Assembly (NCBI GenBank): GCA_947629405.1
Contig: CANRDL010000001.1
Coordinates: forward strand, 73,502 to 135,825
Length of the DNA: 62,324 nucleotides
Direction of reading: 5' to 3'
Origin: an uncultured Bacilli bacterium
GTDB lineage: Bacteria > Bacillota_I > Bacilli_A > RF39 > UBA660
Below the pieces are notes generated by a model. The model did not search any database and had not been told where the DNA came from. It saw nothing but the letters and a program-made list of their open reading frames with translations. Below, in pieces: positions 19,341 to 61,207 of the stretch (positions are counted from its first letter, which is position 1; each line of letters opens with the position of its first letter). The translations under genes were made by a program, and so were the position numbers.

Positions 19341-20423
19341 ATGAAAAGTGCTTATATTCATATTCCTTTTTGCAAAAAAATTTGCACTTATTGTGATTTT
19401 TGTAAAATGATTTACAACAATTCATGGATTATGCAATATTTAGATGCTTTAGAAAGCGAAATTAATGATAACTATGATGGTGAAAAGTTAAAATCTATTT
19501 ATATTGGTGGTGGAACGCCATCATGTTTAAATAATGATGAACTAATCAAACTTTTTAATATTATTAATGTTTTTCAAAGAGATGAGGACATAGAATTTAC
19601 TTTTGAATGTAATTTATGTGATATAAATGAAAATTTATTGGGTATACTTAAAAAAAGTGGGGTCAATAGATTAAGCATCGGGATTGAATCATTTGATTCT
19701 AGATTACTAGAAATTATGAATCGTTCAGCTGATTATGACGATGCTTTATCTAAAATAAATTTATGTCGTAAAATGGGATTTGAAAATATTAATATTGATC
19801 TAATATATGGATTTAATATTGAGGATGTAAGCATGTTAAAATCGGATATTAAAAAGATATTAAAATTACAACCGGAACATATTTCAACTTATTCACTAAT
19901 AATAGAAGATAATACGCAAATGGGTATCAGTAAAATAAAACCAATTGATCAAGATTTAGATGCAAAAATGTATGATACTATATGCAAAATGTTAAAAAGA
20001 AAAGGTTACAATCATTATGAAATAAGTAATTTTTCTAAAATTGGTTATGAATCTTTTCATAATATAAATTATTGGAAAAATAACGAATATTATGGTTTTG
20101 GCCTTGGAGCACATGGATATATAATGGGTTTTAGATATGAAAATACTAGAAGTTTAAATGATTATCTAAAAGGAAAATTTCACTTAAAAGAAAATATTTT
20201 ATCTAAAGAAGAAAAAATGCAAAATGAACTAATGCTTTCACTTCGTCTAAAAAAAGGGATTAACATAAAAGAATTTTATCATAAATTTGGTACAAATATT
20301 CAACAGGTTTTTGATTTTAATGAAGTTATAAATAATAAAGATATTATTTATAAAAATGGCTATATTTTTATACCTGAAAATAAATTTTATGTTATGAATG
20401 AAATTTTACTGAAATTATTATGA
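19341..20423 (+). CDS. hemW: radical SAM heme chaperone HemW (HemN-like)
   Basis: MKSAYIHIPFCKKICTYCDFC is the CxxxCxxC motif in its typical N-terminal position, and a HemN_C-like tail follows. The ORF track starts at 19290, but no ribosome-binding site is visible there. Confidence 0.8.
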   Translation: MKSAYIHIPFCKKICTYCDFCKMIYNNSWIMQYLDALESEINDNYDGEKLKSIYIGGGTPSCLNNDELIKLFNIINVFQRDEDIEFTFECNLCDINENLLGILKKSGVNRLSIGIESFDSRLLEIMNRSADYDDALSKINLCRKMGFENINIDLIYGFNIEDVSMLKSDIKKILKLQPEHISTYSLIIEDNTQMGISKIKPIDQDLDAKMYDTICKMLKRKGYNHYEISNFSKIGYESFHNINYWKNNEYYGFGLGAHGYIMGFRYENTRSLNDYLKGKFHLKENILSKEEKMQNELMLSLRLKKGINIKEFYHKFGTNIQQVFDFNEVINNKDIIYKNGYIFIPENKFYVMNEILLKLL

Positions 20424-20434
20424 GGAGGAAATTT

Positions 20435-21343
20435 ATGAAAAAACTAATTATATTTATAGTATTATTAATTATTAGTTTTTTTAATATTGAAAATTGTTTA
20501 GCCATTGAAGAACCGGAAACATCTTCAAGTATTAGTTCCCAAGAACCAGTTGAAGAATCTAAAGAAGTTTCCTCATCAAGCGAAATTTCTTCAAGTGTAA
20601 AATTATCTAATGATGCTAATTTAAAATCATTAAAAATTAACAATGGAGTTTTATCTCCAAACTTTAGTCCCAATACTACCAATTATTCTTTAACAGTTAA
20701 TGAAAATATTTCTTCTGTAACCTTTAGTGCTTCTTGTAATAACTGTAAGTCAATATCAGGACTTGGTTCTTTTAAAGTATATAATGGTACAAATAATCAT
20801 ACTATAAAAGTAGTTTCCGAAGATGGACTAAATACCAAAACTTATAATATATATATTACTAAAAAAGAAAGTAACAACGAAATTGATAATTCGGTATCAG
20901 CTGATTTAAAAAGCTTAAAAGTAAGAGGCTATAAAATTTCTCCGGAATTTAGCAAATTAATAAATGAATATACTGTTACCATTAATAAAGGAGAAAAATC
21001 AATTTATATAGATTATGAAGCAGTTGAAAATGAAGCTATAGTTACTATTAAAGGAAATAAAAATTTAAAAATTGGAGTCAATAAAATTACTATAATAGTA
21101 ACCAATGGCAAAAAAGAACAAGTTTACTATTTAACTGTTAATAAAGAAAAAGCAAAAACTAAATCAAAAATTGATAAAAATACCAAAACTAATAGTAAAA
21201 AGAAAGATTATATTTTAATATCTATTATATGTGGAAGTGCTTTATTAATAATTTTAATTGCTTGGTATTTTATATTTATGCATAAAAAAGTATCTTTAAA
21301 AAGAAAAGTTAAAAAATTAAAAAAAAAAATAAATGAGAAATAA
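20435..21343 (+). CDS. secreted, C-terminally anchored protein with two cadherin-like beta-sandwich modules
   Basis: A signal peptide follows the AGGAGG site, and there is an S/E-rich linker. Two modules start LKSLKINNGVLSPNFSPNTTNYSLTV and LKSLKVRGYKISPEFSKLINEYTVTI. The C-terminus has a TM helix and a basic tail. Confidence 0.6.
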   Translation: MKKLIIFIVLLIISFFNIENCLAIEEPETSSSISSQEPVEESKEVSSSSEISSSVKLSNDANLKSLKINNGVLSPNFSPNTTNYSLTVNENISSVTFSASCNNCKSISGLGSFKVYNGTNNHTIKVVSEDGLNTKTYNIYITKKESNNEIDNSVSADLKSLKVRGYKISPEFSKLINEYTVTINKGEKSIYIDYEAVENEAIVTIKGNKNLKIGVNKITIIVTNGKKEQVYYLTVNKEKAKTKSKIDKNTKTNSKKKDYILISIICGSALLIILIAWYFIFMHKKVSLKRKVKKLKKKINEK

Positions 21344-25440: not shown

Positions 25441-26442
25441 ATGGAAACAAATATTTTTATCCCAGGAAGATTATGCCTTATTGGCGAACATTCTGATTGG
25501 GCAGCTATCAAAAATCAAAAATATGGATATGCAATTGCTACAATTTTAAAAGAAGGTATTTATGCTAAAGTTTCCAAAAATGATAAAATTATTATTTGTG
25601 ATAATAAAAATGTTATTTTAAAATCTGATTTATCATTAAAACAATTGGAACAAAATTTAAAAGATAAGTATTTAAAATATATTGCTAATGCATGTTATTA
25701 TATTTTAAATAATTATAATGTTGGTGGAATAAAAATAAATATATATAAAACCACTTTATTAGTAAAAAAAGGTTTAGCATCTTCAACAGCAATTATTTTA
25801 ACAATAATTGAATCATTTAATGAAGTATATAATTTAAAATTATCTAAAAAGAAAAAAATGCAAATTGCATATGATGTCGAACATTATCTTGGTTCAAAAT
25901 GTGGAATGTTAGATACAATTTGTGCATATAAAAATGGTACTTATTTAATTGAATTTAGAAAAACTAAAACATTAATTAGTAAAATAGATATTAGTAAAAA
26001 ATTTTATTTTATATATGCTGATTTAAATAAAAGTAAAAATACATTAAAAATATTATCCGATTTAAATAATAATTTTGATAAAAGTAAAAAAATGCAAAAA
26101 TTTTTAGGAATTCATAATGAAAGATTTGTGAATAAAGCAATAGAGTATTTAAAAAAAGGAGATTCTTTAAAATTAGGAAAAGTCATGGTAGATTTTCAAA
26201 AAGAATTTGATAAAAGTTTAATTCCTGCTTCAAAATATTTGGAGGCTCCATATTTGCACAAGTTATTAAATGATAAATTTATTAAAAAGAATTCTTACGG
26301 AAGAAAAGGCATTGGTTCAGGTGGTGATGGTGGTATTCAAATATTAGCCAAATCCAATCTAGCCCAAAAAGAAATTATAAATTATTTAAAAGAAAAATAT
26401 GATATTAATGCTATAAGTTTAGTATTAGAAGAGGAGAAGTAA
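25441..26442 (+). CDS. GHMP family sugar kinase (galactokinase-like)
   Basis: PGRLCLIGEHSDW is a galactokinase-type signature, and KKGLASSTAIILT is the GHMP ATP motif. Confidence 0.7.
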   Translation: METNIFIPGRLCLIGEHSDWAAIKNQKYGYAIATILKEGIYAKVSKNDKIIICDNKNVILKSDLSLKQLEQNLKDKYLKYIANACYYILNNYNVGGIKINIYKTTLLVKKGLASSTAIILTIIESFNEVYNLKLSKKKKMQIAYDVEHYLGSKCGMLDTICAYKNGTYLIEFRKTKTLISKIDISKKFYFIYADLNKSKNTLKILSDLNNNFDKSKKMQKFLGIHNERFVNKAIEYLKKGDSLKLGKVMVDFQKEFDKSLIPASKYLEAPYLHKLLNDKFIKKNSYGRKGIGSGGDGGIQILAKSNLAQKEIINYLKEKYDINAISLVLEEEK

Positions 26443-26444
26443 AT

Positions 26445-27368
26445 ATGGATTTAATTAGTTTAGTAGTACCTGTTTTTAATGAAGAAAAAACTATTCCCAT
26501 TTTTTATAAGGAATTTAATAAATTAAAGAAAAAAATGAAGAATGTTAAATTTGAATTAATATTTGTGGATGATGGCTCTAAAGATAATACGAAAGATGTG
26601 ATTAAAAATATTGCCAAAAATGATAAAATTGTAAGATATATAATTTTTTCTCGTAACTTTGGCAAAGATGCAGCAATGTTTGCTGGTTTGGAAGCTTCTA
26701 AGGGAGATTATACAACTACTATGGATGTAGATTTACAAGATCCACTAGATTTATTAATTCCAATGTATGATGCTGTAAAAAGTGGAGAATATGATTCAGC
26801 TGCAGCTTATAGGATATCGCGTAAAGGTGAAAGTTATATTAGAAGTTTTTTTGCTCATATGTTTTATAAATTAATGAAAAAAATAACAAAATTAGATATA
26901 AAAGATGGAGCAAGAGATTATCGTTTAATAAATAAAAATATGAAAAATGCTGTTTTACAATTGAAAGAAAAAACTCGATTTATAAAAGGTATCTATGAAT
27001 GGGTCGGTTTTAAAACTAAATGGATATCTTATGAAAATATAAATCGGGTAGAAGGAAAAACAAAATGGTCTTTTTGGAAATTATTTAAAAATTATATTGT
27101 AGGAATTACTGCTAATTCTAATTTAATTTTAACTTTAATTACTTTTTTAGGAATTTTATTTTGTTTAACTTTTGGATTACTATTAATATTATTTTTATTA
27201 TTATCTTTAGTTAATTCTACCAATTTAATAATTTTATTTGGATGTCTATTTACTGGTATTATTTTAATTGCTTTAGGTATAGTAGGTAATTATATTTCCA
27301 AAATTTATATTGAAACCCAAAACAGGCCAATATATATTGTAAAAGAAACAGAAAAAGAAATGAAATAA
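26445..27368 (+). CDS. GT2 polyprenol-phosphate glycosyltransferase (GtrB/ArnC-like)
   Basis: ISLVVPVFNEE and FVDDGSKDNT motifs, a DVDLQDP motif, and two C-terminal TM helices. Confidence 0.85.
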   Translation: MDLISLVVPVFNEEKTIPIFYKEFNKLKKKMKNVKFELIFVDDGSKDNTKDVIKNIAKNDKIVRYIIFSRNFGKDAAMFAGLEASKGDYTTTMDVDLQDPLDLLIPMYDAVKSGEYDSAAAYRISRKGESYIRSFFAHMFYKLMKKITKLDIKDGARDYRLINKNMKNAVLQLKEKTRFIKGIYEWVGFKTKWISYENINRVEGKTKWSFWKLFKNYIVGITANSNLILTLITFLGILFCLTFGLLLILFLLLSLVNSTNLIILFGCLFTGIILIALGIVGNYISKIYIETQNRPIYIVKETEKEMK

Positions 27369-27379
27369 TCATTTCTTTT

Positions 27380-28801
27380 TTATCTTATTTTATATGGAGT
27401 TGAATCTACACTTTTTATGTATTTTTTAACATTAATATTTTTTTTACTATATACTGTATTTTTATTATCACTAGAATATTTATAGTTTAAATATGTGCTA
27501 TCACAATATAAAAATTGAAAACTATAAAGGCGTCGATATTCAAAATAGGGAATATGGTATTTATTATCGTAATTTGGGCAACGAATATTTTCTTCGTTAT
27601 TTAAAATTTGTTTATCGATATATTTTTCTCTTATAACATTATAAGAGTTATAATCTATATATAAAAATCTTAATAACAAGCTATATATTAATAACAAAAG
27701 TATTTGTAATATTAATATTAAATTAATATATTTTATTTTAGTTATTCTATTTATAATAAAATAATTTATATAAAAAATAATTATATTAAAAAAACTAAAT
27801 GATATTAATAAAAGTGAACGAATTTCAACATATTTGCCAACTACTTGAGAAAAAAGAGCAATGGACGAAATAGCTAAATTTATAATTAAAATATTATAAT
27901 TTTTGGATAATATTTTTTTCTTTTTTAATTTGCAATAAATAAAGTAAAGTATAGTTAAAATTAACGTAATAAATAATATTAAAATGAAGTATTTAAAAAA
28001 ATTAATAAACATTTTATTTTTAGTAATAATTGCCCATTCTGCATTATTAAATGCATTTATTCTTATCTTTGTCGATTCAGAACAAACCATAATTAAAAAA
28101 CAAGTTGCAGTACATAGAGGAGCTCCAATAGTCCACTTTAAAATTTTTTTATTTTTCTTATAATAAAATAAAGCAGTTATTATCATATAAGTTATTAAAA
28201 CTGGAACTATATTTTCGGTAGAAAATCCTGCGATTAAAAACAAAATATAAAATAAAATTAATTTTATTTTCTTATCCTTAAATATATTTTTATTTTCTTG
28301 TAAATATCTAAAAGGAATACCTGCCAGCAAAACTATAATTGTATCAAATAGTTGATTAAAAGTTCCTGCTTCCCATAAAAATATTTCTGAAAATGCTGGA
28401 GTTAAAAAGAAAATTAAAATACTACAAAAAAGCAATAATACGGAATAATTTTTAATTTTTTTAATATTACCAAATGTGTAAAATAACATAAGATTACTAA
28501 AAATTACAAAATTTAAAGAGCTTACTATATAAAAAATATATTTTGGGAAACTACCAACAATAAAATATACTGTTTCTCCAATTCTTAAATTCCAATATAT
28601 TGCCCGGTTATAAATATGTCTTACTGTTTGTAAAAATGTTAATCTTGGTGTATAAAGATATGTATTAGCTAAACTGTTATCAATCCCAATTTGTTTTATC
28701 ACTGTTAAAATAATTAAATAGCATATTACTATAAATAAGTTTGTTAAAATTATATTTTTGTATTTTTTTAAATATTTTAATATATTTTGCAAATTAATCA
28801 C
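27380..28801 (-). CDS. polytopic membrane protein, possibly a GT-C-type glycosyltransferase (inferred from context only)
   Basis: 473 aa with more than 10 predicted TM segments. It is adjacent and convergent to the GtrB-like gene. No motif was recognised. Confidence 0.35.
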   Translation of the reverse strand: MINLQNILKYLKKYKNIILTNLFIVICYLIILTVIKQIGIDNSLANTYLYTPRLTFLQTVRHIYNRAIYWNLRIGETVYFIVGSFPKYIFYIVSSLNFVIFSNLMLFYTFGNIKKIKNYSVLLLFCSILIFFLTPAFSEIFLWEAGTFNQLFDTIIVLLAGIPFRYLQENKNIFKDKKIKLILFYILFLIAGFSTENIVPVLITYMIITALFYYKKNKKILKWTIGAPLCTATCFLIMVCSESTKIRINAFNNAEWAIITKNKMFINFFKYFILILFITLILTILYFIYCKLKKKKILSKNYNILIINLAISSIALFSQVVGKYVEIRSLLLISFSFFNIIIFYINYFIINRITKIKYINLILILQILLLLIYSLLLRFLYIDYNSYNVIREKYIDKQILNNEENIRCPNYDNKYHIPYFEYRRLYSFQFLYCDSTYLNYKYSSDNKNTVYSKKNINVKKYIKSVDSTPYKIR

Positions 28802-28904
28802 TCACTTCTTTAAATATATTTTATCATACTAAATAACAAGTTGCGAGATAAATACTTTAAAATGTATAATTATTTTGTTATAATTATTTTAATGGTGGTA
28901 AAAA

Positions 28905-30218
28905 ATGAAAGATAAAAAAGAAATAGCAAAAATTTTTAGTAATGTATCTTTTTATTTGGGAATTATATATTGTTTATTACCCTTTTTTTATTCGTTAATG
29001 AATTTATATGATAATAATAGTGCTTCTAACTTTCGTTATATGTTTATGGCTATTATTGGTAGCATTGCCTTGTTTTCATTTATAATTTATATTATTTTTT
29101 TAAAAAGAAATTGTAAATTAACTTTTAAAAATATTTTACCTTTAATTTTATTAATTTCTTTTTTAATTTGGTCATTTATTTCTTCTTGTTTATCCAATAA
29201 TAAAAGTATTTCTTTTTTAGGAACAGATTATCGCAAAGAGGGATTTTTAACCTATCTTTTCTATGGTGGATTTATTGGTATAGGGGCAATGATTAATGAT
29301 AAAAATAAATACAAAATATTAGCTAATATCATATTAATAACAGCAATTTATGGTGGAGCAATAAATTTATTAGGAAATGAAATTTCGCTTAAACTTTTTG
29401 CAACAAATCCTTATGCTGGTTTTTTTCATCATTTTAATCACTTTGCTTATTTTTTAAATATTTGTATTTTTATAGCAATTTTATTAATGTTAGATGCAAA
29501 AAAAATATTATTTAAATTATATTATTTTATAGTTTATATATTTTTGTTATTTATTTTAATTATTAATAATACCTTTGGTGTATATTTAGCAATTTTATTT
29601 TCAATTATTATTTTAATAATATATTTAATAAAAAATAAATTGTATAAATATGCCATAATAATATTTTTACCGTTTTTAATTTTATCTTGTATTTTAAAAG
29701 CTGATAATTATCAATATAATAAAACTATTGTTTTTGATAATTTTGTTGATCTTGGTTATGATTTAAAAATACTTACTAATAATTCCAAAAATACTGAAAA
29801 TAATATAAATTCTGAAATAGTAAATATTGATTCTGTTGGTAGTGATCGGGGTGGACTATGGAGAAATGGTTTAAATTTTATAAAACAAAAACCATTGTTT
29901 GGTTATGGTCCAGATAACTTAGAAAGCGAATACAATAAATTAAATATTGATATGGATAGAGCCCATAATTTGATAATTCAATTAGCAGCAACAACAGGAA
30001 TAATAGGATGTTTATTTTATTTTAGTAGTTTATTTGTAATACTTATTTATAATTTTAAAAGAAATAAATTTACGTTAGCTATTTCTTTAATAATTGTTTC
30101 TTATTTAATTTCTTCAATGTTTGGTAATTCTATGTATACTATATCTCCTTATTTTATGTTGTTGTTTGGAGTTTTAATTGGTATAAATTTGCGTTGTGAT
30201 GGTGATAATTATGTATAA
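28905..30218 (+). CDS. O-antigen ligase/polymerase (Wzy_C-like) family membrane protein
   Basis: Polytopic membrane protein with a large loop containing SDRGGLWRNGLNFIKQKPLFGYGPDN, then RAHN. Confidence 0.7.
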   Translation: MKDKKEIAKIFSNVSFYLGIIYCLLPFFYSLMNLYDNNSASNFRYMFMAIIGSIALFSFIIYIIFLKRNCKLTFKNILPLILLISFLIWSFISSCLSNNKSISFLGTDYRKEGFLTYLFYGGFIGIGAMINDKNKYKILANIILITAIYGGAINLLGNEISLKLFATNPYAGFFHHFNHFAYFLNICIFIAILLMLDAKKILFKLYYFIVYIFLLFILIINNTFGVYLAILFSIIILIIYLIKNKLYKYAIIIFLPFLILSCILKADNYQYNKTIVFDNFVDLGYDLKILTNNSKNTENNINSEIVNIDSVGSDRGGLWRNGLNFIKQKPLFGYGPDNLESEYNKLNIDMDRAHNLIIQLAATTGIIGCLFYFSSLFVILIYNFKRNKFTLAISLIIVSYLISSMFGNSMYTISPYFMLLFGVLIGINLRCDGDNYV

Positions 30219-30813
30219 AAGATTTTTAAAAAGATGTTTTGATATATTAATTTCATTGTTATTAATTATTATTCTTTCTCCACTTTTTTTATGTATATAT
30301 ATACTTATTAAAGTAAGTTCACCTGGAAAAGTAATATATAAACATAAAAGATATGGTTATAAGGGTAAAATCATAACTATTTATAAATTTAGAACAATGG
30401 TTGAAAATGCTGAAACTTTAGAGAAAAAATTTAATTTATCTCAAAAAAAGGAATATTTCGAAAATTTTAAATTAAAAAATGATTTTCGTATCATAAAAAA
30501 TGGTAAGTTTTTGCGAAAATATTGTTTAGATGAGTTGCCTCAATTATTTAATGTATTAAAAGGAGATATGAGTTTAGTTGGTCCGAGACCAATAGTAAAA
30601 AGAGAGCTTGATAAATATAAAACTAAAAAGAATAAATTATTAAGTATAAAACCTGGGCTTACTGGTCTTTGGCAAATAAATAAAAATAAAATTACTAATT
30701 ATAAAAAAAGAATGGAAACAGAACTATTTTATGTAGATAATTATAATTTTTTACTAGATTTGGAAATAATTTTTTTGACATTAATTTTTATATTTAAAGG
30801 AAATGACTATTAA
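30211..30813 (+). CDS. undecaprenyl-phosphate sugar-1-phosphate transferase (bacterial sugar transferase family)
   Basis: KRCFDILISLLLIIILSPLF, YKFRTM and LDELPQLFNVLKGDMSLVGPRP motifs. ATG 30211 follows GGTGA. Confidence 0.9.
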   Translation: MYKRFLKRCFDILISLLLIIILSPLFLCIYILIKVSSPGKVIYKHKRYGYKGKIITIYKFRTMVENAETLEKKFNLSQKKEYFENFKLKNDFRIIKNGKFLRKYCLDELPQLFNVLKGDMSLVGPRPIVKRELDKYKTKKNKLLSIKPGLTGLWQINKNKITNYKKRMETELFYVDNYNFLLDLEIIFLTLIFIFKGNDY

Positions 30814-30837
30814 TAAATAAAATTTTAAGGAGTAAAT

Positions 30838-31806
30838 ATGAAATATTCAATTTTGATTGCTGTTTATAACAAAGAAAAATATTTAGATAAATGTTTAGAT
30901 TCTATCTTAAATCAAACATATAAAAATTATGAGGTAATTGTTTGTGATGATGGCTCAACTGATAATAGTTATAATTTGTTAAAAAAATATAATATTAAAT
31001 TATACAAAAAGAAAAATAGTGGAGTATCGGATACAAGAAATTTTTTAATAAGTAAAGTAAGAACAAAATATTTTTTATTTGTTGATGCTGATGATTATAT
31101 TTCTAAAGATTTATTAAAAACTATAGATAAGTATGATAATAAAAATTACGATATATTAAGTTTTAGTGGAAAAGAAATTGATGAAAATGGAAAAATTTTA
31201 GATATATTAAATAAAGGAAAATTTTCTTGTAATGGAGAAAAAGCAATTAAAAAATTGATTTATAATAAAGCCTATTTTGATGTACCTTGGGGATATTGTT
31301 ATAATACAAATTATTTTAAAAGTTTGCATCTTTCTTATCCAAAGGGAAGAGTACATGAAGATTTTTATTTGACCCCTCTTGTTATAACTAATGCTAAAAA
31401 AATTATTGGTATCCAAAAATATTTATATTATTATGTCCAAAGTAAACAGAGTATAGTTAGAGGAAATAATAAAGCAATGTTAAATAAAAGAAAAGCAGAT
31501 ATGCTCTTTAATTATAAATTATTATGTGATACAGTTAAAAATAGTAATTTTAGTAGAAAAACTAAAGAGGACTTATATGTTTTTGCATTAAGAACCGCTT
31601 TATATTTTTGTAAATCATTAAAACTAAAAGATAAATTATCTTTTTTAAAAGAAATTAATAAAAGTGAAAATGCTAAACATTTTCGTTTTCCTAACGATGG
31701 TAGAGTAAAAAAATTCTTATTAAATATTAATTTAAGTTCATATTTAATTATAGGAATACCTTATTATAATTTAAAAGAAAAAATAAAGAGAGTGATTAAG
31801 AAATGA
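30838..31806 (+). CDS. GT2 family glycosyltransferase
   Basis: YSILIAVYNKEKYLDKCLDSILNQTYKNYEVIVCDDGSTDNS and a DADD motif. Confidence 0.85.
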   Translation: MKYSILIAVYNKEKYLDKCLDSILNQTYKNYEVIVCDDGSTDNSYNLLKKYNIKLYKKKNSGVSDTRNFLISKVRTKYFLFVDADDYISKDLLKTIDKYDNKNYDILSFSGKEIDENGKILDILNKGKFSCNGEKAIKKLIYNKAYFDVPWGYCYNTNYFKSLHLSYPKGRVHEDFYLTPLVITNAKKIIGIQKYLYYYVQSKQSIVRGNNKAMLNKRKADMLFNYKLLCDTVKNSNFSRKTKEDLYVFALRTALYFCKSLKLKDKLSFLKEINKSENAKHFRFPNDGRVKKFLLNINLSSYLIIGIPYYNLKEKIKRVIKK

Positions 31807-36269: not shown

Positions 36270-37548
36270 TATCGATGAAGAAATTTTATATGAAAAATCA
36301 TCTGCTGGTTTAGATATTTTTATGTTACCAAATAAAAAAGTAAAAAGTTTTTATATAACTTTAAATGTTAAATATGGTTCTTTAATCACATCATTTAAAG
36401 AAAAAAAAGCTAAGAAGTTTATAAATGTTCCAAATGGTATTGCCCATTTTATAGAGCATATGAAATTTTATCAACCAAATGGTGTAACGGCTCATGAATA
36501 TTATAATAAATTAGGTTCAAGTATAAATGCTGCAACTTCTTATAGATATACTTTTTATGAAGTGTATGCAACAACAGAATTTAAAAAGAATTTAGATTAT
36601 TTACTTGAATATGTTTATACTCCCTGTTTTAAAAATGCCGATATTAAAACGGAAAAGGGAATTATAAAAGAAGAAATAAAAATGGGAATAGATAATCCTT
36701 CAACTATGCTTTATATGACAACAAATGAGCTTTTATATCAAAAAGATAATATGAAATATAGTATTGCTGGAGATGTGGAAGATATAAATAAAATTAATTC
36801 TAAAATGCTTCAAGAAGTATACGATCATTTTTATAAACCAGATAATATGTTTTTAGTAATTACAGGTAATTTTAATCCTGAATTAGCTGTTGCGATGATC
36901 AATGAAAAAATGAAGTCATTAAAATTTAGCAATATAGGGGAAGTTGAAATAAAAAAAATTAAGGAACCTTCTACAGTTTCTTTAGATGAAAAAATATTTA
37001 ATATGGATGTAACTTTTCCTAAATTAAAATTATCCTATAAAATGCCCTATAAAAATTTTTCTAAATTAAATCTTACAAATCCGGAATTGTCAGCCTATAT
37101 TAATATTATTTTGAAAAATAAATTTGGTATAACTTCTTCATTTTATCAAAAATTAAATGAAGAACAGTTATTAAGTAGCGGCCTTTATTATAGTTGTCTT
37201 ATTAGAAAAGAAAAAGATTATATTATTATATCTATTGAGACTGAAACTAAGTATCCTGATGATATTCGTAAAAAAATAATAGCTAATTTAAAAAATTTAA
37301 AAGTTGATGAAAAAATACTTGAACGAAGTAAAAAAATATTAATAAGTAATGCGGTTTTAAGAACTGATTCTATTCAAGTTATGAATGCCTCAATTCAAAA
37401 TGACATAGTGATGTTTGATGAAATTATGCAAGATGAATACCAAATGTATAAAAATTTAAATATGACTACTTTAAATAAAGTTCTTAAATGTTTAAATTTT
37501 TCTAAAAAAGTATATGTTCAAATTAATCCAATAGATAATCAAGACTAG
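36247..37548 (+). CDS. M16 family zinc peptidase (active-site subunit)
   Basis: GIAHFIEHMKF carries the HxxEH zinc motif. ATG 36247 follows GGAGG. Confidence 0.85.
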   Translation: MKKITLNNIDEEILYEKSSAGLDIFMLPNKKVKSFYITLNVKYGSLITSFKEKKAKKFINVPNGIAHFIEHMKFYQPNGVTAHEYYNKLGSSINAATSYRYTFYEVYATTEFKKNLDYLLEYVYTPCFKNADIKTEKGIIKEEIKMGIDNPSTMLYMTTNELLYQKDNMKYSIAGDVEDINKINSKMLQEVYDHFYKPDNMFLVITGNFNPELAVAMINEKMKSLKFSNIGEVEIKKIKEPSTVSLDEKIFNMDVTFPKLKLSYKMPYKNFSKLNLTNPELSAYINIILKNKFGITSSFYQKLNEEQLLSSGLYYSCLIRKEKDYIIISIETETKYPDDIRKKIIANLKNLKVDEKILERSKKILISNAVLRTDSIQVMNASIQNDIVMFDEIMQDEYQMYKNLNMTTLNKVLKCLNFSKKVYVQINPIDNQD

Positions 37549-37572
37549 TTCTTGATTTTTTTTTTAAAATAA

Positions 37573-37795
37573 ATTCGACAAAAAATGGCAAAAATTTCCA
37601 CAAAAACTTGACAGGGGGGGGTCTATTATATAATTTCCTTAGAAAGTAAGGAAATACTATGAAGAAAAATAAACTAAAAGTAGAATTAAAAAAATATCTT
37701 AGCCAAAAAGAAAAGATAAAAAATACCTTTATAAGCTCATGTATTATTCTAGTAGTCCTTACTTTTTTTATCTTTATAACATATTCATACTTTAT
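37573..37795 (+). repeat. copy 1 of a 223-bp direct repeat (promoter plus the first 137 nt of coding sequence)
   Basis: It matches 38926-39148 at a constant offset of 1353 nt. I saw only 3 substitutions, all upstream of the -35 element. The 137 coding nt are identical. Confidence 0.9.
37608..37634 (+). promoter_or_regulatory. TTGACA-G8-TCTATTA-TATAAT promoter with a homopolymeric G tract in the spacer
   Basis: TTGACA is at 37608-37613, the G8 run at 37614-37621 and TATAAT at 37629-37634. The spacer is 15 nt as sequenced. Confidence 0.65.
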
Positions 37796-38924
37796 AAATA
37801 AAACAGGAGAAATAGAAGTAGGAAATTTTAATTCAAGTATACCTGATGTTGAAATAATAAATAAAGAAATAGTTAAAAATACCAATAATCGACAAGTTAT
37901 ATATACAATAAAAAATAACTCAAGTAGTTATACGTATTCTTATAGTTTGTTTTATAAAATAAAAGGAACTAGAATAGCAAGTATATTTTATAAAATACCA
38001 AGTAAAGAATATTCCCATCCGGAAGGAATAATAAAACCAAATGAAACTAAAAAAATATTTCTTTTATCAAGTCCGGATACCAATCATTCTTATTTACAAA
38101 ATGATTTAACCACCGATTCTTGGGATTTTCAACTTTATAGTGGATATGAATATTCAAAGCCTAAAATAGAAGGAGGATATCAAAAAATAAATTATTCTTT
38201 ACTTTCAGAAACTGCTGAATTAAAAAATTTAAATCCATCAATAGGAACATTATCTCCTAACTTTAATTCAAGTACATTAAGTTATGAGTTACATATTCCA
38301 TCTTCTGTAACTATAACTACTATAGAGTTAACTCCAGAAATATCTAATAATGGTGAAATAGATGATAAAACAATTACTATATCGTATAATGCAAATACTT
38401 ATAGATATAATGTAGATAAAAAAATAAAATTATATGCTGAAGATGGAACTTATTTAAAAACATATACGATTAGTACTATAATAAGGGATGTTGATAATGA
38501 TGAAGATTTAAATAAAATATTTGGTAACGGAAAAATACAAAGTATTGTTTTTTTAAGTCGAAATAATCAACCAATTTTTGTAAATGGTACAAATATAGGA
38601 TTTGAAGCTGGCTCAACTCTAACTATCTATGTTCCTTTAAAGTATCAAAATTTAACAACATTTAAAAATTGTATTATAAAATGGTCATATGTAGATGGAC
38701 AAAATTTTCTTTATGAAAATAACAAAGATTGGTATTATTCTTCTACAATTGTTACTGAATCTGGAGGAATATTAAATCATTACGATTCAACTAGTTTTGC
38801 TATTCCTGGTGATTATAATTATTATGAGTTAATGGGACTTACCTATGATTTACATATTGATTATTATCGATATGGGCAACATAGCACTGGTCCAACTTAT
38901 CATATAAAATTTAAAACTCATTAA
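37659..38924 (+). CDS. signal-anchored surface protein, variable family member 1 (contains a cadherin-like beta-sandwich-type module)
   Basis: The basic N-terminus plus TM anchor (aa 1-46) is identical to the next gene. A LKNLNPSIGTLSPNFNSSTLSYELHIP module and the shared KLYAEDGTY block are present. The C-terminal third is unique. Confidence 0.7.
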   Translation: MKKNKLKVELKKYLSQKEKIKNTFISSCIILVVLTFFIFITYSYFINKTGEIEVGNFNSSIPDVEIINKEIVKNTNNRQVIYTIKNNSSSYTYSYSLFYKIKGTRIASIFYKIPSKEYSHPEGIIKPNETKKIFLLSSPDTNHSYLQNDLTTDSWDFQLYSGYEYSKPKIEGGYQKINYSLLSETAELKNLNPSIGTLSPNFNSSTLSYELHIPSSVTITTIELTPEISNNGEIDDKTITISYNANTYRYNVDKKIKLYAEDGTYLKTYTISTIIRDVDNDEDLNKIFGNGKIQSIVFLSRNNQPIFVNGTNIGFEAGSTLTIYVPLKYQNLTTFKNCIIKWSYVDGQNFLYENNKDWYYSSTIVTESGGILNHYDSTSFAIPGDYNYYELMGLTYDLHIDYYRYGQHSTGPTYHIKFKTH

Positions 38925-38925
38925 G

Positions 38926-39148
38926 ATTCGACAAAAAATGGCAAATTTTTCCACAAAAGCTTGACAGGGGGGGGTCTATTATATAATTTCCTTAGAAAGT
39001 AAGGAAATACTATGAAGAAAAATAAACTAAAAGTAGAATTAAAAAAATATCTTAGCCAAAAAGAAAAGATAAAAAATACCTTTATAAGCTCATGTATTAT
39101 TCTAGTAGTCCTTACTTTTTTTATCTTTATAACATATTCATACTTTAT
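38926..39148 (+). repeat. copy 2 of the 223-bp direct repeat
   Basis: See copy 1. It starts 2 nt after the stop codon of the first paralog. Confidence 0.9.
38961..38987 (+). promoter_or_regulatory. second TTGACA-G8-TATAAT promoter
   Basis: TTGACA is at 38961-38966, the G8 run at 38967-38974 and TATAAT at 38982-38987. The spacer is 15 nt. Confidence 0.65.
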
Positions 39149-40307
39149 CAAAAATTCTGGAGAAATAGATGTAGGAAATACTTATGCAGCAATACCAAAT
39201 AAGGATGTTACAATAATAAAAAGAGGAGAAGAAGTTCCAAATAGTAATAATCAACAATATATATATACAATCAAAAATAATTCCCATACAAATACCTATT
39301 CATATAATTTAAGTTATCAAGATAAATCATCAGGTCGTTTTCGTAAAATATATTATAAAATACCAAGTAAAGAGTATTCTCATCCAGAAGGAATAATTAA
39401 AGCTGGTGAGGAGAAAAAAATTTATTTAATATTTGAACAGGGGATAACCAAAGAAGTATTAGGAGAAATATACAATCAAAATGGTGTATGGAATGGAACA
39501 ACAGGACCTTTTTATTTTAAAGTATTTTCAAATTATGAGTATACACCACCTAAAGTAGAAGAAAATTATGTAAAAATAGAATATTCACCTCTTTCAGAAA
39601 CTACTGAATTAACCGATTTAAAAAGTTATAGTGTTGGCTATTTAATCCCATTATTTAATAGTAATATTTTAAATTATGATTTATATCTCCCAGAATATTA
39701 TTCTGATGAAGCAGTTTATTTTAAACCCACTTTAACCAATAATGGTAAAGTTTTAAATAATAAAATTGATATATATGGCAATAGTTATAGATTTAACCGA
39801 GAAATAAAATTATATGCTGAAGATGGAACATATGTAAAAAGTTATAAAATAAATAATATAAATGAAAAAGAACCAAAAGGTAATATATATAGAATTTGGA
39901 TGGAAAGTGCTCAAGGTAAAGTTTTAGGTGAAGCATTTCCTGGTAAATTATCTAGTAATGAAAATTCTAAAATAGTTGATGTAACTTTATCAGTTAAAAA
40001 TAGTGAAACAACTGAAAATTATATATATTTTAATTTCACAGATTTTAATAATTATTTAAAAAAATATTATAGAAATTATTATGTTTTCTCTGTCGAAAAG
40101 TTAATTGGCAATAATTATGCTGATACTTCAGCTTCAGATCTTTTTGATCCAACTGGAAAAATATATGAATCTAGAGATTCATTAAAATTTAAACTTCATC
40201 ATTTCTTCTATAGTGACAAATATCAAATAAAAATATATATAAATTCAACATCTTCAAGTAATTTACTTAAAACATATAATATTTCATTTCAATCTCAAAA
40301 TTCTTAA
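39012..40307 (+). CDS. signal-anchored surface protein, variable family member 2
   Basis: The N-terminal 46 aa are identical to member 1. The middle is moderately similar (YYKIPSKEYSHPEGIIK, LSETTEL, KLYAEDGTY). The C-terminal third is unrelated. Confidence 0.7.
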   Translation: MKKNKLKVELKKYLSQKEKIKNTFISSCIILVVLTFFIFITYSYFIKNSGEIDVGNTYAAIPNKDVTIIKRGEEVPNSNNQQYIYTIKNNSHTNTYSYNLSYQDKSSGRFRKIYYKIPSKEYSHPEGIIKAGEEKKIYLIFEQGITKEVLGEIYNQNGVWNGTTGPFYFKVFSNYEYTPPKVEENYVKIEYSPLSETTELTDLKSYSVGYLIPLFNSNILNYDLYLPEYYSDEAVYFKPTLTNNGKVLNNKIDIYGNSYRFNREIKLYAEDGTYVKSYKINNINEKEPKGNIYRIWMESAQGKVLGEAFPGKLSSNENSKIVDVTLSVKNSETTENYIYFNFTDFNNYLKKYYRNYYVFSVEKLIGNNYADTSASDLFDPTGKIYESRDSLKFKLHHFFYSDKYQIKIYINSTSSSNLLKTYNISFQSQNS

Positions 40308-56560: not shown

Positions 56561-59500
56561 ATGAAATTAGATACTATTTATACTTATTTTAGTGATTATT
56601 CAGAAGAAAATGTAAATAAAATGTTATCATTTCTAACTGATAAAGAAATGGAGTTAATTAAAATTAGGTTTGGAAATAACTTAAAGGAGCAATTAGATAG
56701 TCAAAACGTTCCTAAAAAAGTTAATACTTCGAAATTTTATAATGAATTTTATAAATCACTAGTTCCAAAAATGAGAAATATTCTTAAAGAACTTACTAAA
56801 AATAATAATTTTTCTGAAGAAAAAATTAACGCTGCTATTAAATTATATTATAAAATTCATAAAAATTTATTTGTTTCTGATGATTTAGTTTATAATAGAG
56901 TGAAAATTGGTAAATATCTTCTTTCTAAAAAAAAGGAATATCATAATAAGACTATAGATATTGAATCATTTATTTTTCTTGACTCTTTAAATATGATATG
57001 GGATATAAATAAATTTAATTTAATAAATAGCTTAAAGTATCTAACAAATATAAAATCAGAATTATTATCTACTTTAAATAAAATTGTAAATAATTATGAT
57101 GAAAGTTCTATTGCCCATTTATTAGTTTTTCTTTATAAAAATAAACTAAATAATTATACCTTTTTAAATTGTTTATACGATGCCTCAGTAATATGTCCAA
57201 TTTTGAACAAAAAATTAACTGATGAGGAATACAAAATTTCAATTTTATATTTTAATAATATTGATTTAAATATTATTTTAAACGCATTTAATATTACCAA
57301 AGAAGAATTTAATAATATTAGAAAAAAATCATTAGATATTATTGTAAATAATTCTAGGTTATTAAAAATTAATTTAATTAATAAATCTTTGAAAAATATT
57401 AAACCAATATCAATTGAAAAAACAAAAGATCAAAATTTAAAGATAGATAATTTTAAACCAATTAATAAAAAAGTTACTAAATCTGTCCAACCTGAAAAAA
57501 TAGAAAATAAAAATTTAAATTTAGGTAATACTCCACAAATTAATCATAATGTAAAATCAAGTAAAAAATCTGGTCCAAAATTAAAGAGTATATATGAGCG
57601 ACTATCAGAATATCCACGTGAAAAAGTTGATGAAGTATTAGATAAATTATCCCAGTACGATAAAGAACTACTTAAAATTAACTATGGTGAAGATTTAGAG
57701 CATCCGAAAAGAAATTCAAATTGTAGTAAATATCAAAAAAATAAACTAAATAATATTCTTATACCCAAAATGAAAGATGCTTTAGAAAATCCTGAAAATA
57801 TTGATAGTATTTTAGCTCAAAAAAGTGGGACAAAATTAAAAAGTATATATGAGCGACTATCAGAATATCCTCGAGAAAAAGTTGATGAAGTATTAGATAA
57901 ATTATCTTCGAAAGATAAAGAATTAATTAAAATGAGCTATGGTGAGGATTTAGATAATCCTAAAAGGAATCCAAATTTTAGTCAATATCAAAGAAATAAG
58001 TTAAATATTATTCTTATACCCAAAATGAAAGATGCTTTAGAAAATCCCGAAAATATTGAAAATATATTTGCTAAAAAATCTGGTCCAAAATTAAAAAGTA
58101 TATATGAACGACTATCAGAATATCCTCGAGAAAAAGTTGATGAAGTATTAGATAAATTACCTTCAGAAGATGAAGAATTAATTAAAATGAGCTATGGTGA
58201 AGATTTAGATAATCCTAAAAGAAGTAAAGAGTTTAATGCTTTATACTCGACTAAATTAAATAATATTCTTATACCCAAAATGAAAGAGGCTTTAGAAAAT
58301 CCGGAAAATATCGATAATATATTTGCTCGAAAAAAACGTAATAAAAAATTAAAAAGTATATATGAACGATTTTCAGAATATTCACGTGAACAAGTTGATG
58401 AAGTATTAGACAAGTTACCTCAAAAAGACGAAGAATTAATTAAAATGGGCTATGGTGAAGATTTAGATCATCCGAAAAGAGATCCTAATTTTAGTCAATA
58501 TCAAAAAAATAAACTAAATAATATTCTTATACCCAAAATGAGAGAGGCTTTAGAAAATCCTAAAAATATTGAAAATACATTTGCTAAAAAAGGTGGTCTA
58601 AAATTAAAAAGTATATATGAACGACTATCAGAATATCCTCGAGAAAAAGTTGATGAAGTATTAGATAAATTACCTTCAGAAGATAAAGAATTAATTAAAA
58701 TTTGTTATGGTGAAGATTTAGATCATCCTAAAAGAGGGGAAAAATTTAATCATTGTAATAAAAATAAATTAAATAATATTCTTATACCCAAAATGAGAGA
58801 AGCTTTAGAAAATCCCGAAAATATTGATAATATATTTGTTCGAAGAAAAAGTGGACCAAAATTAAAAAGTATATATGAACGATTTTCAGAATATTCACGT
58901 GAACAAGTTGATGAAGTATTAGATAAGTTATCTCCAAAAGACGAAGAATTAATTAAAATATGCTATGGTGAAGATTTAGATCATCCTAAAAGAAGTAAAA
59001 AATTTGAAAATTTTCATTCATACAGAATAAATAATATTCTTATTCCAAAAATAAAAGAGGCTTTAGAAAATCCTGAAAATATTGATAATATATTTACTCA
59101 AGAAAGTTATGAAAAACTAAAAAGTATATATGAACGACTATCAGAATATTCACGTGAACAAGTTGATGAAGTATTAGATAAATTACCTTCATATGATAAA
59201 GAATTAATTAAGTTATGTTATGGTGAGGATTTAGATCACCCTAAAAGAGATCTGAGTTTTAAACGATATCATAAAAATAAACTAAATAATACTCTAATAC
59301 CAAAAATGAAAGAAGCTTTAGAAAATCCGGAAAAAATTGATAATATATTGACTAAAAAAGGTGGTCCAAAGTTAAAAAATATATATGAACGATTATCAAA
59401 ATATCCTAGAGAAAAAGTTGATGAAGTATTAGACAAGTTACCTCCAAAAGACAAGAAAATAATTAAGATGTGTTATGGTGAAGATTTAGAGCATCCGAAA

Positions 59501-61207
59501 AGAGATCCGAATTTTAGTATATATCATAAAAATAAACTAAATAGTACTATTATACCTCAAATGAGAGAAGCATTAGAAAACCCTGAAAATATTGATAATA
59601 TATTTGCTCAAAAAAATGGTTCAAAACTAAAAAGTATATATGAACGACTATCAGAATATCCACGTGAACAAATTGATGAAGTACTAGATAAGTTACCTCC
59701 AAAAGACGAAGAATTAATTAAAATATGTTATGGCGAAGATTTAGATCATCCTAAAAGAAGTAAAGAGTTTAAAGTCAATCATTCAAGTAAACTAAATAGA
59801 ATTCTTATACCTCAAATGAAAGAAGCTTTAGAAAATCCTAAAAATATCGATAATATATTTGCTCAAAAAAGTGGGACAAAATTAAAAAGTATATATGAGC
59901 GACTTTCAGAATATCCACGTGAGAAAGTTGATGAAGTATTAGACAAGTTATCTTCAAATGATAAAAAATTAATTAAGTTATGTTATGGTGAAGATTTAGA
60001 TCATCCTAAAAGAAGTGAAAATTTTGTTATTTCTAATTCAGTTAATTTAAATATATCAATTTTACCAAAGATAAGAAAAGCTTTAGAAGATCCTAAAAAT
60101 ATTGATAATATATTAGCTCCAAAAAAATGTGGACCAAAATTAAAAAGTATATATGAACGATTTTCAGAATATTCACGTGAACAAATTGATGAAGTATTAG
60201 ACAAGTTACCTCCAAAAGACGAAGAATTAATTAAAATTTGTTATGGTGAAGATTTAGAGCATCCTAAAAGAAATCCAAGTTTTAGTCGTTATCATAAAAC
60301 TAAACTAAACAATAATCTTATACCTCAAATGAAAGAAGCTTTAGAAAACCCTGAAAATATTGATAATATATTTGCTCAAAAAAGTGGGACAAAATTAAAA
60401 AGTATATATGAACGGTTATCCAAATATCCACGTGAACAAATTGATGAAGTACTAGATAAGTTACCTCCAAAAGACGAAGAATTAATTAAAATATGTTATG
60501 GCGAAGATTTAGATAATCCCAAAAGAAGTAAAGAATTTGAAAAAATTCATTCATACAGAATAAATAATATTCTTTTACCAAAGCTGAGAAAAATTTTAGA
60601 AGATCCTGAAAATATTGATAGCATATTAACAAAAAAATGTGGTCCAAAATTAAAAAGTATATATGAACGACTATCAGAATATCCTCGAGAAAAAGTTGAT
60701 GAAGTATTAGACAAGTTACCTCCAAAAGACAAGGAAATAATTAAAATATGTTATGGTGAGGATTTAGATCACCCTAAAAGAGATCCAAGTTTTAGTTTAT
60801 ATCATAAAAATAAACTAAATAATATTCTTATACCAAAAATTAAAAAAAATTTAGAAAATAAAAATAAAATAAATTATGAATACAAATTATCTCCAAATTC
60901 AACAGATACTAAATTAAAAAATATCATAATAGAAAATGATTTGAAATTAAACAATTTTGGAATATTATTAACCGGTGAATTAAATAACGATGAATTATTA
61001 ATAGCGTTATTAAAATTTGGGGTTAATATTTCTATAAAAGACATAGCTAATTATTTAAATATTAAGGAAATGGATGTAAAAAAAATCATTAAAAAAGTTT
61101 TAATAATATATAAAAAGAATATTAATCAATATATAGATAATATTGTTAAGGATATTGAAAATAATAAAGAACCTTTTGATGAAAGTAATATACATTTATT
61201 AAAATAA
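56561..61207 (+). CDS. 1548-aa repeat protein: a diverged N-terminal unit, a helical region with an HTH-like segment, 13 tandem 85-86-aa sigma-70-region-4-like modules, and a C-terminal region-4-like HTH
   Basis: A single uninterrupted ORF with a GAGGGA ribosome-binding site. No signal peptide or TM helix is present. The unit consensus is KLKSIYERLSEYPREKVDEVLDKLPPKDEELIKICYGEDLDHPKR-x10-LNNILIPKMKEALENPENIDNIFAQKSG. The C-terminal ISIKDIANYLNIKEMDVKKIIKKVL is HTH-like. Confidence 0.8.
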   Translation: MKLDTIYTYFSDYSEENVNKMLSFLTDKEMELIKIRFGNNLKEQLDSQNVPKKVNTSKFYNEFYKSLVPKMRNILKELTKNNNFSEEKINAAIKLYYKIHKNLFVSDDLVYNRVKIGKYLLSKKKEYHNKTIDIESFIFLDSLNMIWDINKFNLINSLKYLTNIKSELLSTLNKIVNNYDESSIAHLLVFLYKNKLNNYTFLNCLYDASVICPILNKKLTDEEYKISILYFNNIDLNIILNAFNITKEEFNNIRKKSLDIIVNNSRLLKINLINKSLKNIKPISIEKTKDQNLKIDNFKPINKKVTKSVQPEKIENKNLNLGNTPQINHNVKSSKKSGPKLKSIYERLSEYPREKVDEVLDKLSQYDKELLKINYGEDLEHPKRNSNCSKYQKNKLNNILIPKMKDALENPENIDSILAQKSGTKLKSIYERLSEYPREKVDEVLDKLSSKDKELIKMSYGEDLDNPKRNPNFSQYQRNKLNIILIPKMKDALENPENIENIFAKKSGPKLKSIYERLSEYPREKVDEVLDKLPSEDEELIKMSYGEDLDNPKRSKEFNALYSTKLNNILIPKMKEALENPENIDNIFARKKRNKKLKSIYERFSEYSREQVDEVLDKLPQKDEELIKMGYGEDLDHPKRDPNFSQYQKNKLNNILIPKMREALENPKNIENTFAKKGGLKLKSIYERLSEYPREKVDEVLDKLPSEDKELIKICYGEDLDHPKRGEKFNHCNKNKLNNILIPKMREALENPENIDNIFVRRKSGPKLKSIYERFSEYSREQVDEVLDKLSPKDEELIKICYGEDLDHPKRSKKFENFHSYRINNILIPKIKEALENPENIDNIFTQESYEKLKSIYERLSEYSREQVDEVLDKLPSYDKELIKLCYGEDLDHPKRDLSFKRYHKNKLNNTLIPKMKEALENPEKIDNILTKKGGPKLKNIYERLSKYPREKVDEVLDKLPPKDKKIIKMCYGEDLEHPKRDPNFSIYHKNKLNSTIIPQMREALENPENIDNIFAQKNGSKLKSIYERLSEYPREQIDEVLDKLPPKDEELIKICYGEDLDHPKRSKEFKVNHSSKLNRILIPQMKEALENPKNIDNIFAQKSGTKLKSIYERLSEYPREKVDEVLDKLSSNDKKLIKLCYGEDLDHPKRSENFVISNSVNLNISILPKIRKALEDPKNIDNILAPKKCGPKLKSIYERFSEYSREQIDEVLDKLPPKDEELIKICYGEDLEHPKRNPSFSRYHKTKLNNNLIPQMKEALENPENIDNIFAQKSGTKLKSIYERLSKYPREQIDEVLDKLPPKDEELIKICYGEDLDNPKRSKEFEKIHSYRINNILLPKLRKILEDPENIDSILTKKCGPKLKSIYERLSEYPREKVDEVLDKLPPKDKEIIKICYGEDLDHPKRDPSFSLYHKNKLNNILIPKIKKNLENKNKINYEYKLSPNSTDTKLKNIIIENDLKLNNFGILLTGELNNDELLIALLKFGVNISIKDIANYLNIKEMDVKKIIKKVLIIYKKNINQYIDNIVKDIENNKEPFDESNIHLLK
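57569..60893 (+). repeat. 13 in-frame tandem repeats with a period of 255 nt (three units of 258 nt)
   Basis: Unit starts were read at 57569, 57824, 58079 ... 58592 ... 60638. The span from the first to the last start is 3069 nt, which equals 9x255 + 3x258. Confidence 0.9.

Follow-up and report, generated by a model that had tools for sequence, protein, structure and literature searches.

Poly-G tracts in the promoter spacers of two tandem, predicted surface-protein genes of an uncultured Bacilli bacterium: a candidate slipped-strand switch

Introduction

Promoter switches based on simple sequence repeats (SSRs) are textbook material for a few cultured pathogens (Neisseria, Haemophilus, Mycoplasma, Campylobacter and Bordetella), and the phase variation of gut commensals is better known from invertons. 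In the poly-G promoter of porA, van der Ende and colleagues reportedly found in 1995 that G11, with a spacer of 17 nt, gives high expression, G10 an intermediate level and G9, with 15 nt, a very low one. The homopolymer in the vlp promoters is said, after work by Yogev in 1991 and by Citti and Wise in 1995, to be a poly-A tract.

The described switches that depend on a repeat in the promoter spacer include the poly-G of porA, the TA repeats of hifA/B, Bordetella fim and the vlp genes of Mycoplasma hyorhinis (PMC3899988; PMC11868660). In Neisseria meningitidis porA the poly-G run lies between the -35 and -10 hexamers, and the gain or loss of one nucleotide shifts their spacing and hence the level of transcript (PMC3899988). 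For the hifA/hifB TA repeats, the poly-C of opc and the poly-C of B. pertussis fim, it is again the repeat length that sets a distance, either between the promoter elements or from the activator to the -10 (PMC3899988). The M. hyorhinis vlp genes are tandem paralogs with a homopolymer in each promoter, a conserved 5' region, a variable body and combinatorial ON/OFF expression (PMC3899988, PMC11868660). Finally, G8 tracts of Campylobacter jejuni switch at about 4e-4 per division, with insertions favoured 11-24:1 toward G9 and the G8 to G7 change roughly ten-fold rarer (PMC3401435).

The locus described here belongs to a 62,324-nt stretch of DNA from an uncultured, AT-rich gut Bacilli bacterium, which we call the window. 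It resembles porA in that a run of G occupies the spacer of a sigma-70-type promoter before a (predicted) surface-protein gene. However, porA is a single gene of a Gram-negative pathogen, with longer tracts whose variation is well documented both between and within strains, whereas here we have a multigene family of low-GC Bacilli with G8 at 26 of 28 promoters and barely documented variation. Judged by analogy, the closest known layout (multigene, tandem, with a conserved 5' cassette) is that of vlp: in both cases tandem paralogs each have their own homopolymer promoter and a conserved 5' region, a functional analogy and not a family membership. Unlike the poly-A of vlp, the tract here is poly-G, and there is no sequence homology between the two; moreover, the Vlps are lipoproteins with C-terminal tandem repeats, whereas the present proteins have an uncleaved-looking transmembrane anchor and nothing like those repeats. 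With C. jejuni the locus shares an AT-rich genome in which G/C runs that reach 7-8 or more are scarce and cluster in genes for surface structures, but the C. jejuni tracts lie mostly in reading frames, where they act by frameshift, and their lengths vary among isolates, whereas the tracts considered here are in promoter spacers. Haemophilus influenzae hifA/hifB, N. meningitidis opc and B. pertussis fim involve other repeat types, organisms and gene families, and Bordetella fim additionally needs the BvgA activator. The variable surface gene clusters vsa, vsp and vpma of Mycoplasma also have a conserved 5' cassette that includes a short leader element; in those, one promoter is moved by a dedicated recombinase through inversions, whereas here there is a promoter per gene, in direct orientation, with neither a nearby recombinase nor inverton repeats. 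Our literature search found no SSR promoter switch for uncultured, reduced-genome gut Bacilli. The mechanism considered below is of a known kind; new as examples are the gene family, its lineage and the arrangement of poly-G tracts in a multigene set.

The tandem genes and their duplicated 5' cassette

Gene 1 (37659-38924, forward strand, 421 aa, with its TAA stop codon at 38922-38924) and its paralog gene 2 (39012-40307, forward strand, 431 aa) encode proteins that are 47% identical overall and completely identical over the first 46 residues. This identical part belongs to a 5' cassette of about 222 bp that is present on the forward strand as copy 1 at 37574-37795 and as copy 2 at 38927-39148, and that consists of an A-rich upstream block, the promoter, the leader and codons 1-46 (a cytoplasmic tail plus a transmembrane anchor). 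The two copies agree at 219 of 222 positions; all three mismatches are upstream of the -35 hexamer and none falls between it and codon 46, whereas outside the cassette the nucleotide identity of the two genes is only 63%. Both copies have strain-specific codons 2-6 and encode MKKNKLK, in place of the MKKNNTK of every other strain. Since the window copies share strain-specific codons, the cassette has apparently been homogenised within this genome by concerted evolution. The initial annotation had the second promoter beginning 2 nt after the stop codon of gene 1; that distance is correct for the duplicated cassette, which starts 2-3 nt after the stop (from 38926/38927), but the -35 hexamer itself is 36 nt after it.

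The surroundings of the pair are of the housekeeping type, with an HD phosphohydrolase and two M16 peptidases upstream and Tex, RuvA and RuvB downstream. No recombinase domain was found in the ORFs within ~15 kb of the gene pair, nor any credible inverton-type inverted repeats flanking the promoters. A model of an inverton or of a recombinase-driven shufflon was consequently rejected; the two genes are in direct orientation, each with a complete promoter of its own. On the upstream side, a weak terminator-like hairpin (37537-37565, forward strand; an 8-bp AT-rich stem followed by T10) overlaps the stop codon of the adjacent M16 peptidase gene and would insulate gene 1 from upstream transcription. 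Its fold, at -6.8 kcal/mol, is no better than those of shuffled sequences, and a stricter terminator scan, requiring three G-C pairs, did not call it.

A family of predicted surface proteins

The genes at 37659-38924 and 39012-40307 are predicted, largely from modelled structure, to encode surface proteins that are anchored in the membrane and built of Ig-like and cadherin-like beta-sandwich domains; the tandem pair belongs to a small family that is diversifying fast. The gene 1 protein has an N-terminal transmembrane anchor, a family-specific beta-sandwich domain, a cadherin-like beta-sandwich domain and a variable C-terminal domain. In Pfam it has a sub-threshold match to PF12733 (Cadherin-like; E = 4e-4), with 21.2 bits where the cutoff is 24.2, and no Pfam match was obtained for gene 2. 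An AlphaFold model of the gene 2 protein, built with a 21-member family alignment (pLDDT 75), has a transmembrane helix at residues 16-45 and three beta-sandwich domains, one of them at the place (~180-270) where the family profile matches cadherin-like repeats. A Foldseek search with this model returned tandem Ig/FN3 modules, the biofilm-associated protein Bap, pilus chaperones and subunits, and the S-layer protein SbsB, all with low TM-scores, so that the structural similarity is a generic one. A lipoprotein reading of an 'ISSC' motif was rejected, as Cys 28 precedes the hydrophobic core (modelled helix 16-45). Tandem Repeats Finder (TRF) reported two weak AT-rich arrays in gene 1 (37856-37917 and 38358-38412, scores 57) and none in gene 2.

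The family is small and confined to this lineage. Exact-protein look-ups with the two window proteins themselves gave no match, and a scan of GTDB with the family alignment detected no member in any species representative. A word-indexed search of 5.8 billion proteins yielded 20 relatives, nearly all from one ENA assembly set, while a profile search of 1.84 billion representatives yielded ~15 full-length family members among the 150 matches listed. Positions ~180-270 of the profile also match repeats in hundreds of giant multi-repeat surface proteins, but these involve the middle cadherin-like domain only. Within the family the first ~190 residues are nearly exact between members and the C-terminal parts are mosaic; the proteins P0003, P0004 and P0005, for example, have their N-terminal half in common and different C-terminal halves. 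To judge from these alignments, a conserved N-terminus joined to mosaic C-termini is what one would expect of the architecture of a variable surface-protein family. In P0016 and P0020 the conserved N-terminal ~190 aa are followed by a different C-terminal domain of ~300 aa, rich in Cys and aromatic residues, a case of domain shuffling within the family.

Elsewhere in the window (20420-21343) there is a 307-aa protein with two PF12733 domains (E = 3e-14), putatively a second surface protein; its similarity to the middle domain of gene 1 is weak (31% over 102 aa).

Poly-G spacers of the two window promoters

The promoter of gene 2 occupies 38961-38987 of the forward strand and reads TTGACA GGGGGGGG TCTATTA TATAAT, with the -35 hexamer TTGACA at 38961-38966, the G8 homopolymer at 38967-38974 and the -10 hexamer TATAAT at 38982-38987, i.e. 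15 nt past the -35; the full sequence of 38960-38987 is CTTGACAGGGGGGGGTCTATTATATAAT. An identical copy of this 27-mer precedes gene 1 at 37608-37634 of the same strand (TTGACA at 37608-37613, G8 at 37614-37621, TCTATTA, then TATAAT at 37629-37634, again with a spacer of 15 nt), and 100 shuffles produced no match. The claim from which this analysis started, that the second promoter repeats the layout of the first, is thus borne out by an exact 27-mer at both sites: both genes have a complete promoter copy with the tract inside the spacer, and both tracts are G8 with spacers of 15 nt. By its sequence the promoter is predicted to be of the sigma-A/sigma-70 type, with the G8 run taking up the greater part of the spacer between the two hexamers. 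The tract and a further 7 nt are bordered by perfect TTGACA and TATAAT hexamers, and this layout is kept in 28 of 28 (predicted) family promoters.

The GC content of the window is 23.1%, and no G/C run of at least 6 exists anywhere in its 62 kb besides the two G8 tracts, the next longest being five 5-mers. A composition model predicts 0.007 G runs of at least 8 per window. A duplicated cassette carries both copies, which therefore do not count as independent events. Each tract is of a length (G/C of ~7-8 or more) at which slippage can be expected. Homopolymers are in general hard to sequence, and one might suppose that the identical G8 tracts are due to chance or to an artefact of sequencing or assembly. 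We find this scarcely believable, given the above expectation, the shuffling result and the recurrence of the feature, with 30 promoter copies altogether, in the NCBI contig and in independent Illumina/SPAdes assemblies of 10 samples.

Tract length in related contigs

The survey covered the window together with 18 contigs of 10 ENA samples that exact-protein look-ups had retrieved, 131.8 kb of DNA of the same lineage in total; tract lengths were read from consensus metagenome assemblies (Illumina/SPAdes) and the NCBI contig. All 30 G/C runs of at least 6 in these 131.8 kb are within TTGAC(A/T)-Gn promoter spacers, with none elsewhere: 28 precede family genes and two precede a gene for a 562-aa protein. 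The 28 family promoters have G8 (26) or G9 (two) and never G7. They comprise 19 copies of TTGACA-G8-TCTATTA-TATAAT with a 15-nt spacer (many of them a given locus met again in other samples), seven copies of TTGACT-G8-TTCTATTA or TTGACT-G8-TTATATTA with a 16-nt spacer and two copies of TTGACA-G9-TCTATTA, also with 16 nt. In seven of the nine 16-nt spacers TTGACA-G8-T has become TTGACT-G8-TT, a linked substitution and T insertion that is not G slippage. Pattern scans in other collections were negative: the five matches to CTTGAC-N5-25-CTATTATATAATTTCC in JGI metagenomes are chance ones, none with a G tract, and viral-contig DNA gave no match.

The two G9 tracts, at 1563-1571 of contig L032 and 490-498 of L033, are each in the promoter of P0003, which is second in a homologous tandem pair. 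The two contigs represent different samples, and the gene upstream of P0003 is not the same in them; the homologous promoter has G8 in the window, L001 and L002. As G9 always accompanies P0003, a single old event may account for both. For any one gene the tract length is constant across samples, of which there are up to five (P0002, n=4; P0008, n=3; P0019, n=4; P0010, n=2). Some variation in tract length does therefore exist at the homologous second-gene promoter, but 26 of 28 tracts are G8 and each gene keeps its own length. The spacers of the homologous tandem pair are [15,15] in the window, [16,15] in L001 and [16,16] in L032. It had been proposed at the outset that two tracts could give four expression states; three of the four combinations of 15 and 16 nt do occur among strains, but most of the differences between 15 and 16 nt do not come from G slippage.

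This near-invariance of G8 across paralogs, strains and 10 samples would suit a fixed cis-regulatory or structural element of the cassette (e.g. part of the site of an activator or repressor by which all family members are regulated together), held by selection and gene conversion, with G9 as a tolerated mutation; truly hypermutating homopolymers usually vary between isolates. The block CACAAAAAC-TTGACA-G8-T is also kept where the sequence farther upstream is unrelated (L011, L034). Likewise, a CACAAAAACTTGACA-G8-T block stands before the gene for the unrelated 562-aa protein, which has no Pfam match (L034 4032-4087, L035 2361-2416), at a distance of 19 nt from a TATAAT, or 14 nt from a TATTAT, and with a different leader that has no palindrome; the block could be a cis element that works irrespective of spacing. 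Against such a fixed element, an uninterrupted G8 at 23% GC is unstable and costly unless selection acts on its mutability or on a very specific contact, most copies have an off-optimum spacing that would be disfavoured in a constitutive design, G9 alleles occur in two genomic contexts, and a G9 spacer exists in another genus. We consider a fixed element a serious rival of the switch described below, though a less likely one. The G9 spacer of the other genus, 16 nt in length, belongs to an unrelated promoter, TTGACC-G9-TGCATGG-TATTAT, at 9428-9457 of L016 (CAVCAD010000110.1, the nearest GTDB relative), and this suggests that poly-G spacers are a habit of the lineage. A tRNA gene immediately precedes the L016 promoter, which lies where the contig ends. 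The distant orthologues of another species (P0013 in L003 and P0018 in L015) are without a G tract and have instead an extended -10 promoter, TGTGGTATACT or TGTGATATACT.

Alternatively, the main source of variation could be homologous recombination or gene conversion within the ~220-bp cassette, which would exchange coding bodies as well as the 15-nt and 16-nt promoter types, with the G tract as a passenger. P0014, with identical protein and coding sequence, lies behind two promoter variants and upstream flanks (L034/L035 against L036), and P0003 with its G9 follows two upstream genes (L032 against L033). These contexts indicate either recombination within the cassette or chimeric assembly across the repeat. 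The shared N-terminal and different C-terminal halves of P0003, P0004 and P0005, and the concerted evolution of the window copies, also fit recombination. However, some of the joins may be chimeras across the ~220-bp repeat, the absence of a recombinase gene within ~15 kb and of inverton-type inverted repeats does not help, and neither the presence of G8 nor the lack of G runs outside these spacers is explained. As the principal explanation recombination strikes us as improbable; it is compatible with a slippage switch and does not exclude one.

Spacer length and a slipped-strand model

Among the other pairs of TTGAC[AT] with a good -10 in the window and the related loci (G-tract promoters excluded), spacers of 17 nt account for nine of 23, 16 nt occurs once and 15 nt never. 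In view of this peak, the canonical spacing rule seems to apply in this lineage. The G8 promoters are 1-2 nt below the 17-nt optimum, which would be attained with G10, or with G9 in the TTGACT-TT variant. Since the 15-nt spacer of the window promoters is two nucleotides under the optimum, their transcription is probably low. The initial annotation had considered G8 to be probably low or OFF; a spacing that is off-optimum for the lineage argues for this, but the OFF state is deduced from spacing alone and would imply that 19 of the 28 collected family promoter copies are silent at the consensus level.

The reading that we prefer, at about even odds, is that the poly-G promoters are a slipped-strand switch of the porA/vlp kind that has been caught in its sub-optimal (low) state. 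In such a switch each gene would be headed by its own ~222-bp cassette, whose copies recombination or gene conversion would keep near-identical, and G8, with its 15-nt spacer, would give low transcription. Slipped-strand mispairing would then add one or two G residues, giving G9 with 16 nt or G10 with 17 nt, and raise transcription; because the tract of each gene would change independently, the two genes would be switched separately. What can be seen directly (the promoter anatomy, the confinement of G runs to spacers, the family structure, the off-optimum spacing and the G9 alleles) comes in a context typical of contingency loci, namely a conserved 5' cassette, mosaic C-termini, concerted evolution, predicted surface products and few members. 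From this we infer that expression varies with tract length and that the promoters switch often and reversibly, and we hypothesize that the two genes are independently switchable. By analogy, a spectrum of G8 and G9 only agrees with the +1 bias of the G8 tracts of C. jejuni. The related strains, with one G9 variant, are weak evidence of switching; a population in which most cells have G8 and a minority G9 or G10 at any given gene would yield an all-G8 consensus, an argument of compatibility only. Caution is called for where consensus metagenome assemblies give almost no length variation at a switch-like tract. If the poly-G spacers do switch, the products would be lineage-specific variable surface proteins, probably selected on by host, phages or competitors, and G runs at 23% GC would be a simple signature for contingency loci in metagenome-assembled genomes (MAGs).

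Intergenic read-through and the leader hairpin

The lack of a terminator between the two genes, already pointed out in the initial annotation, is confirmed: a terminator scan found no terminator-like site between gene 1 and gene 2, and the 38860-38990 RNA gives a fold that shuffled sequences match (z = +0.9). A perfect 9-bp inverted repeat, ATTTCCTTA-GAAAG-TAAGGAAAT, lies at 38986-39008 of the forward strand, and gene 1 is preceded by a second copy at 37633-37655, where transcription is predicted to start at about 37640-37643. The copy before gene 2 covers the last part of the -10 hexamer, the predicted start of transcription (38993-38996, 6-9 nt past the -10) and, in its 3' arm, the Shine-Dalgarno sequence AAGGA (39001-39005), which is 6 nt before the ATG. 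The hairpin that it forms has a free energy of -9.4 kcal/mol (z = -3.6; one of 200 shuffles was equally good). In an RNA starting at 38994 this hairpin is lost and only -1.0 kcal/mol remains. The repeat is invariant in every family cassette with a complete leader sequence, and because of this invariance covariation cannot serve as a test of the hairpin; no Rfam family matches the leader or promoter region.

As the predicted start is at the end of the 5' arm, a hairpin that sequesters the Shine-Dalgarno sequence could form only in RNA that reads through from upstream. The cassette may accordingly have two layers: the poly-G spacer may set the strength of each promoter, and the hairpin at 38986-39008 may hide the Shine-Dalgarno sequence in read-through transcripts only. 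With the Shine-Dalgarno sequence hidden in such RNA, each gene would have to rely on its own promoter in order to be translated. That the cassette is indeed such a two-layer device, keeping tandem genes without a terminator independently switchable, is a long shot; were it true, the leader hairpin would be a "translational insulator" for arrays of phase-variable genes. The idea of a hairpin insulator is derived from positions and one fold, and the repeat could equally be a repressor operator. A perfect 9-bp palindrome over the -10 hexamer and the predicted start is operator-like and counts in favour of the fixed-element reading.

Host lineage and other features of the window

A comparison of Tex with GTDB gave nearest relatives with 59-64% identity, all of them uncultured gut or rumen Bacilli or 'Erysipelotrichaceae' MAGs, or Clostridium sp. 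CAG:1000; the nearest of these is the genome with the G9 promoter, L016 (64%). No synteny around Tex is shared with the nearest GTDB relatives. The long ORFs of the window are intact under translation table 11, from which we conclude that the standard genetic code is used. A group of polysaccharide genes is found at 25441-31806, with a GHMP kinase, two GT2 glycosyltransferases, a DUF6056 protein, an O-antigen-ligase-like Wzy_C protein and a Bac_transf sugar transferase. This polysaccharide-synthesis cluster implies an organism with a surface glycan and a cell envelope, and not a wall-less mollicute. Finally, the window has a 1548-aa ORF at 56561-61207 in which a 255-nt unit is repeated 12.9 times (57564-60859, 81% matches, TRF score 3919). 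Partial Pfam matches to the helix-turn-helix (HTH) of Sigma-70 region 4 are piled up over this ORF, which looks like a giant protein with ~13 HTH-like repeats of 85 aa.
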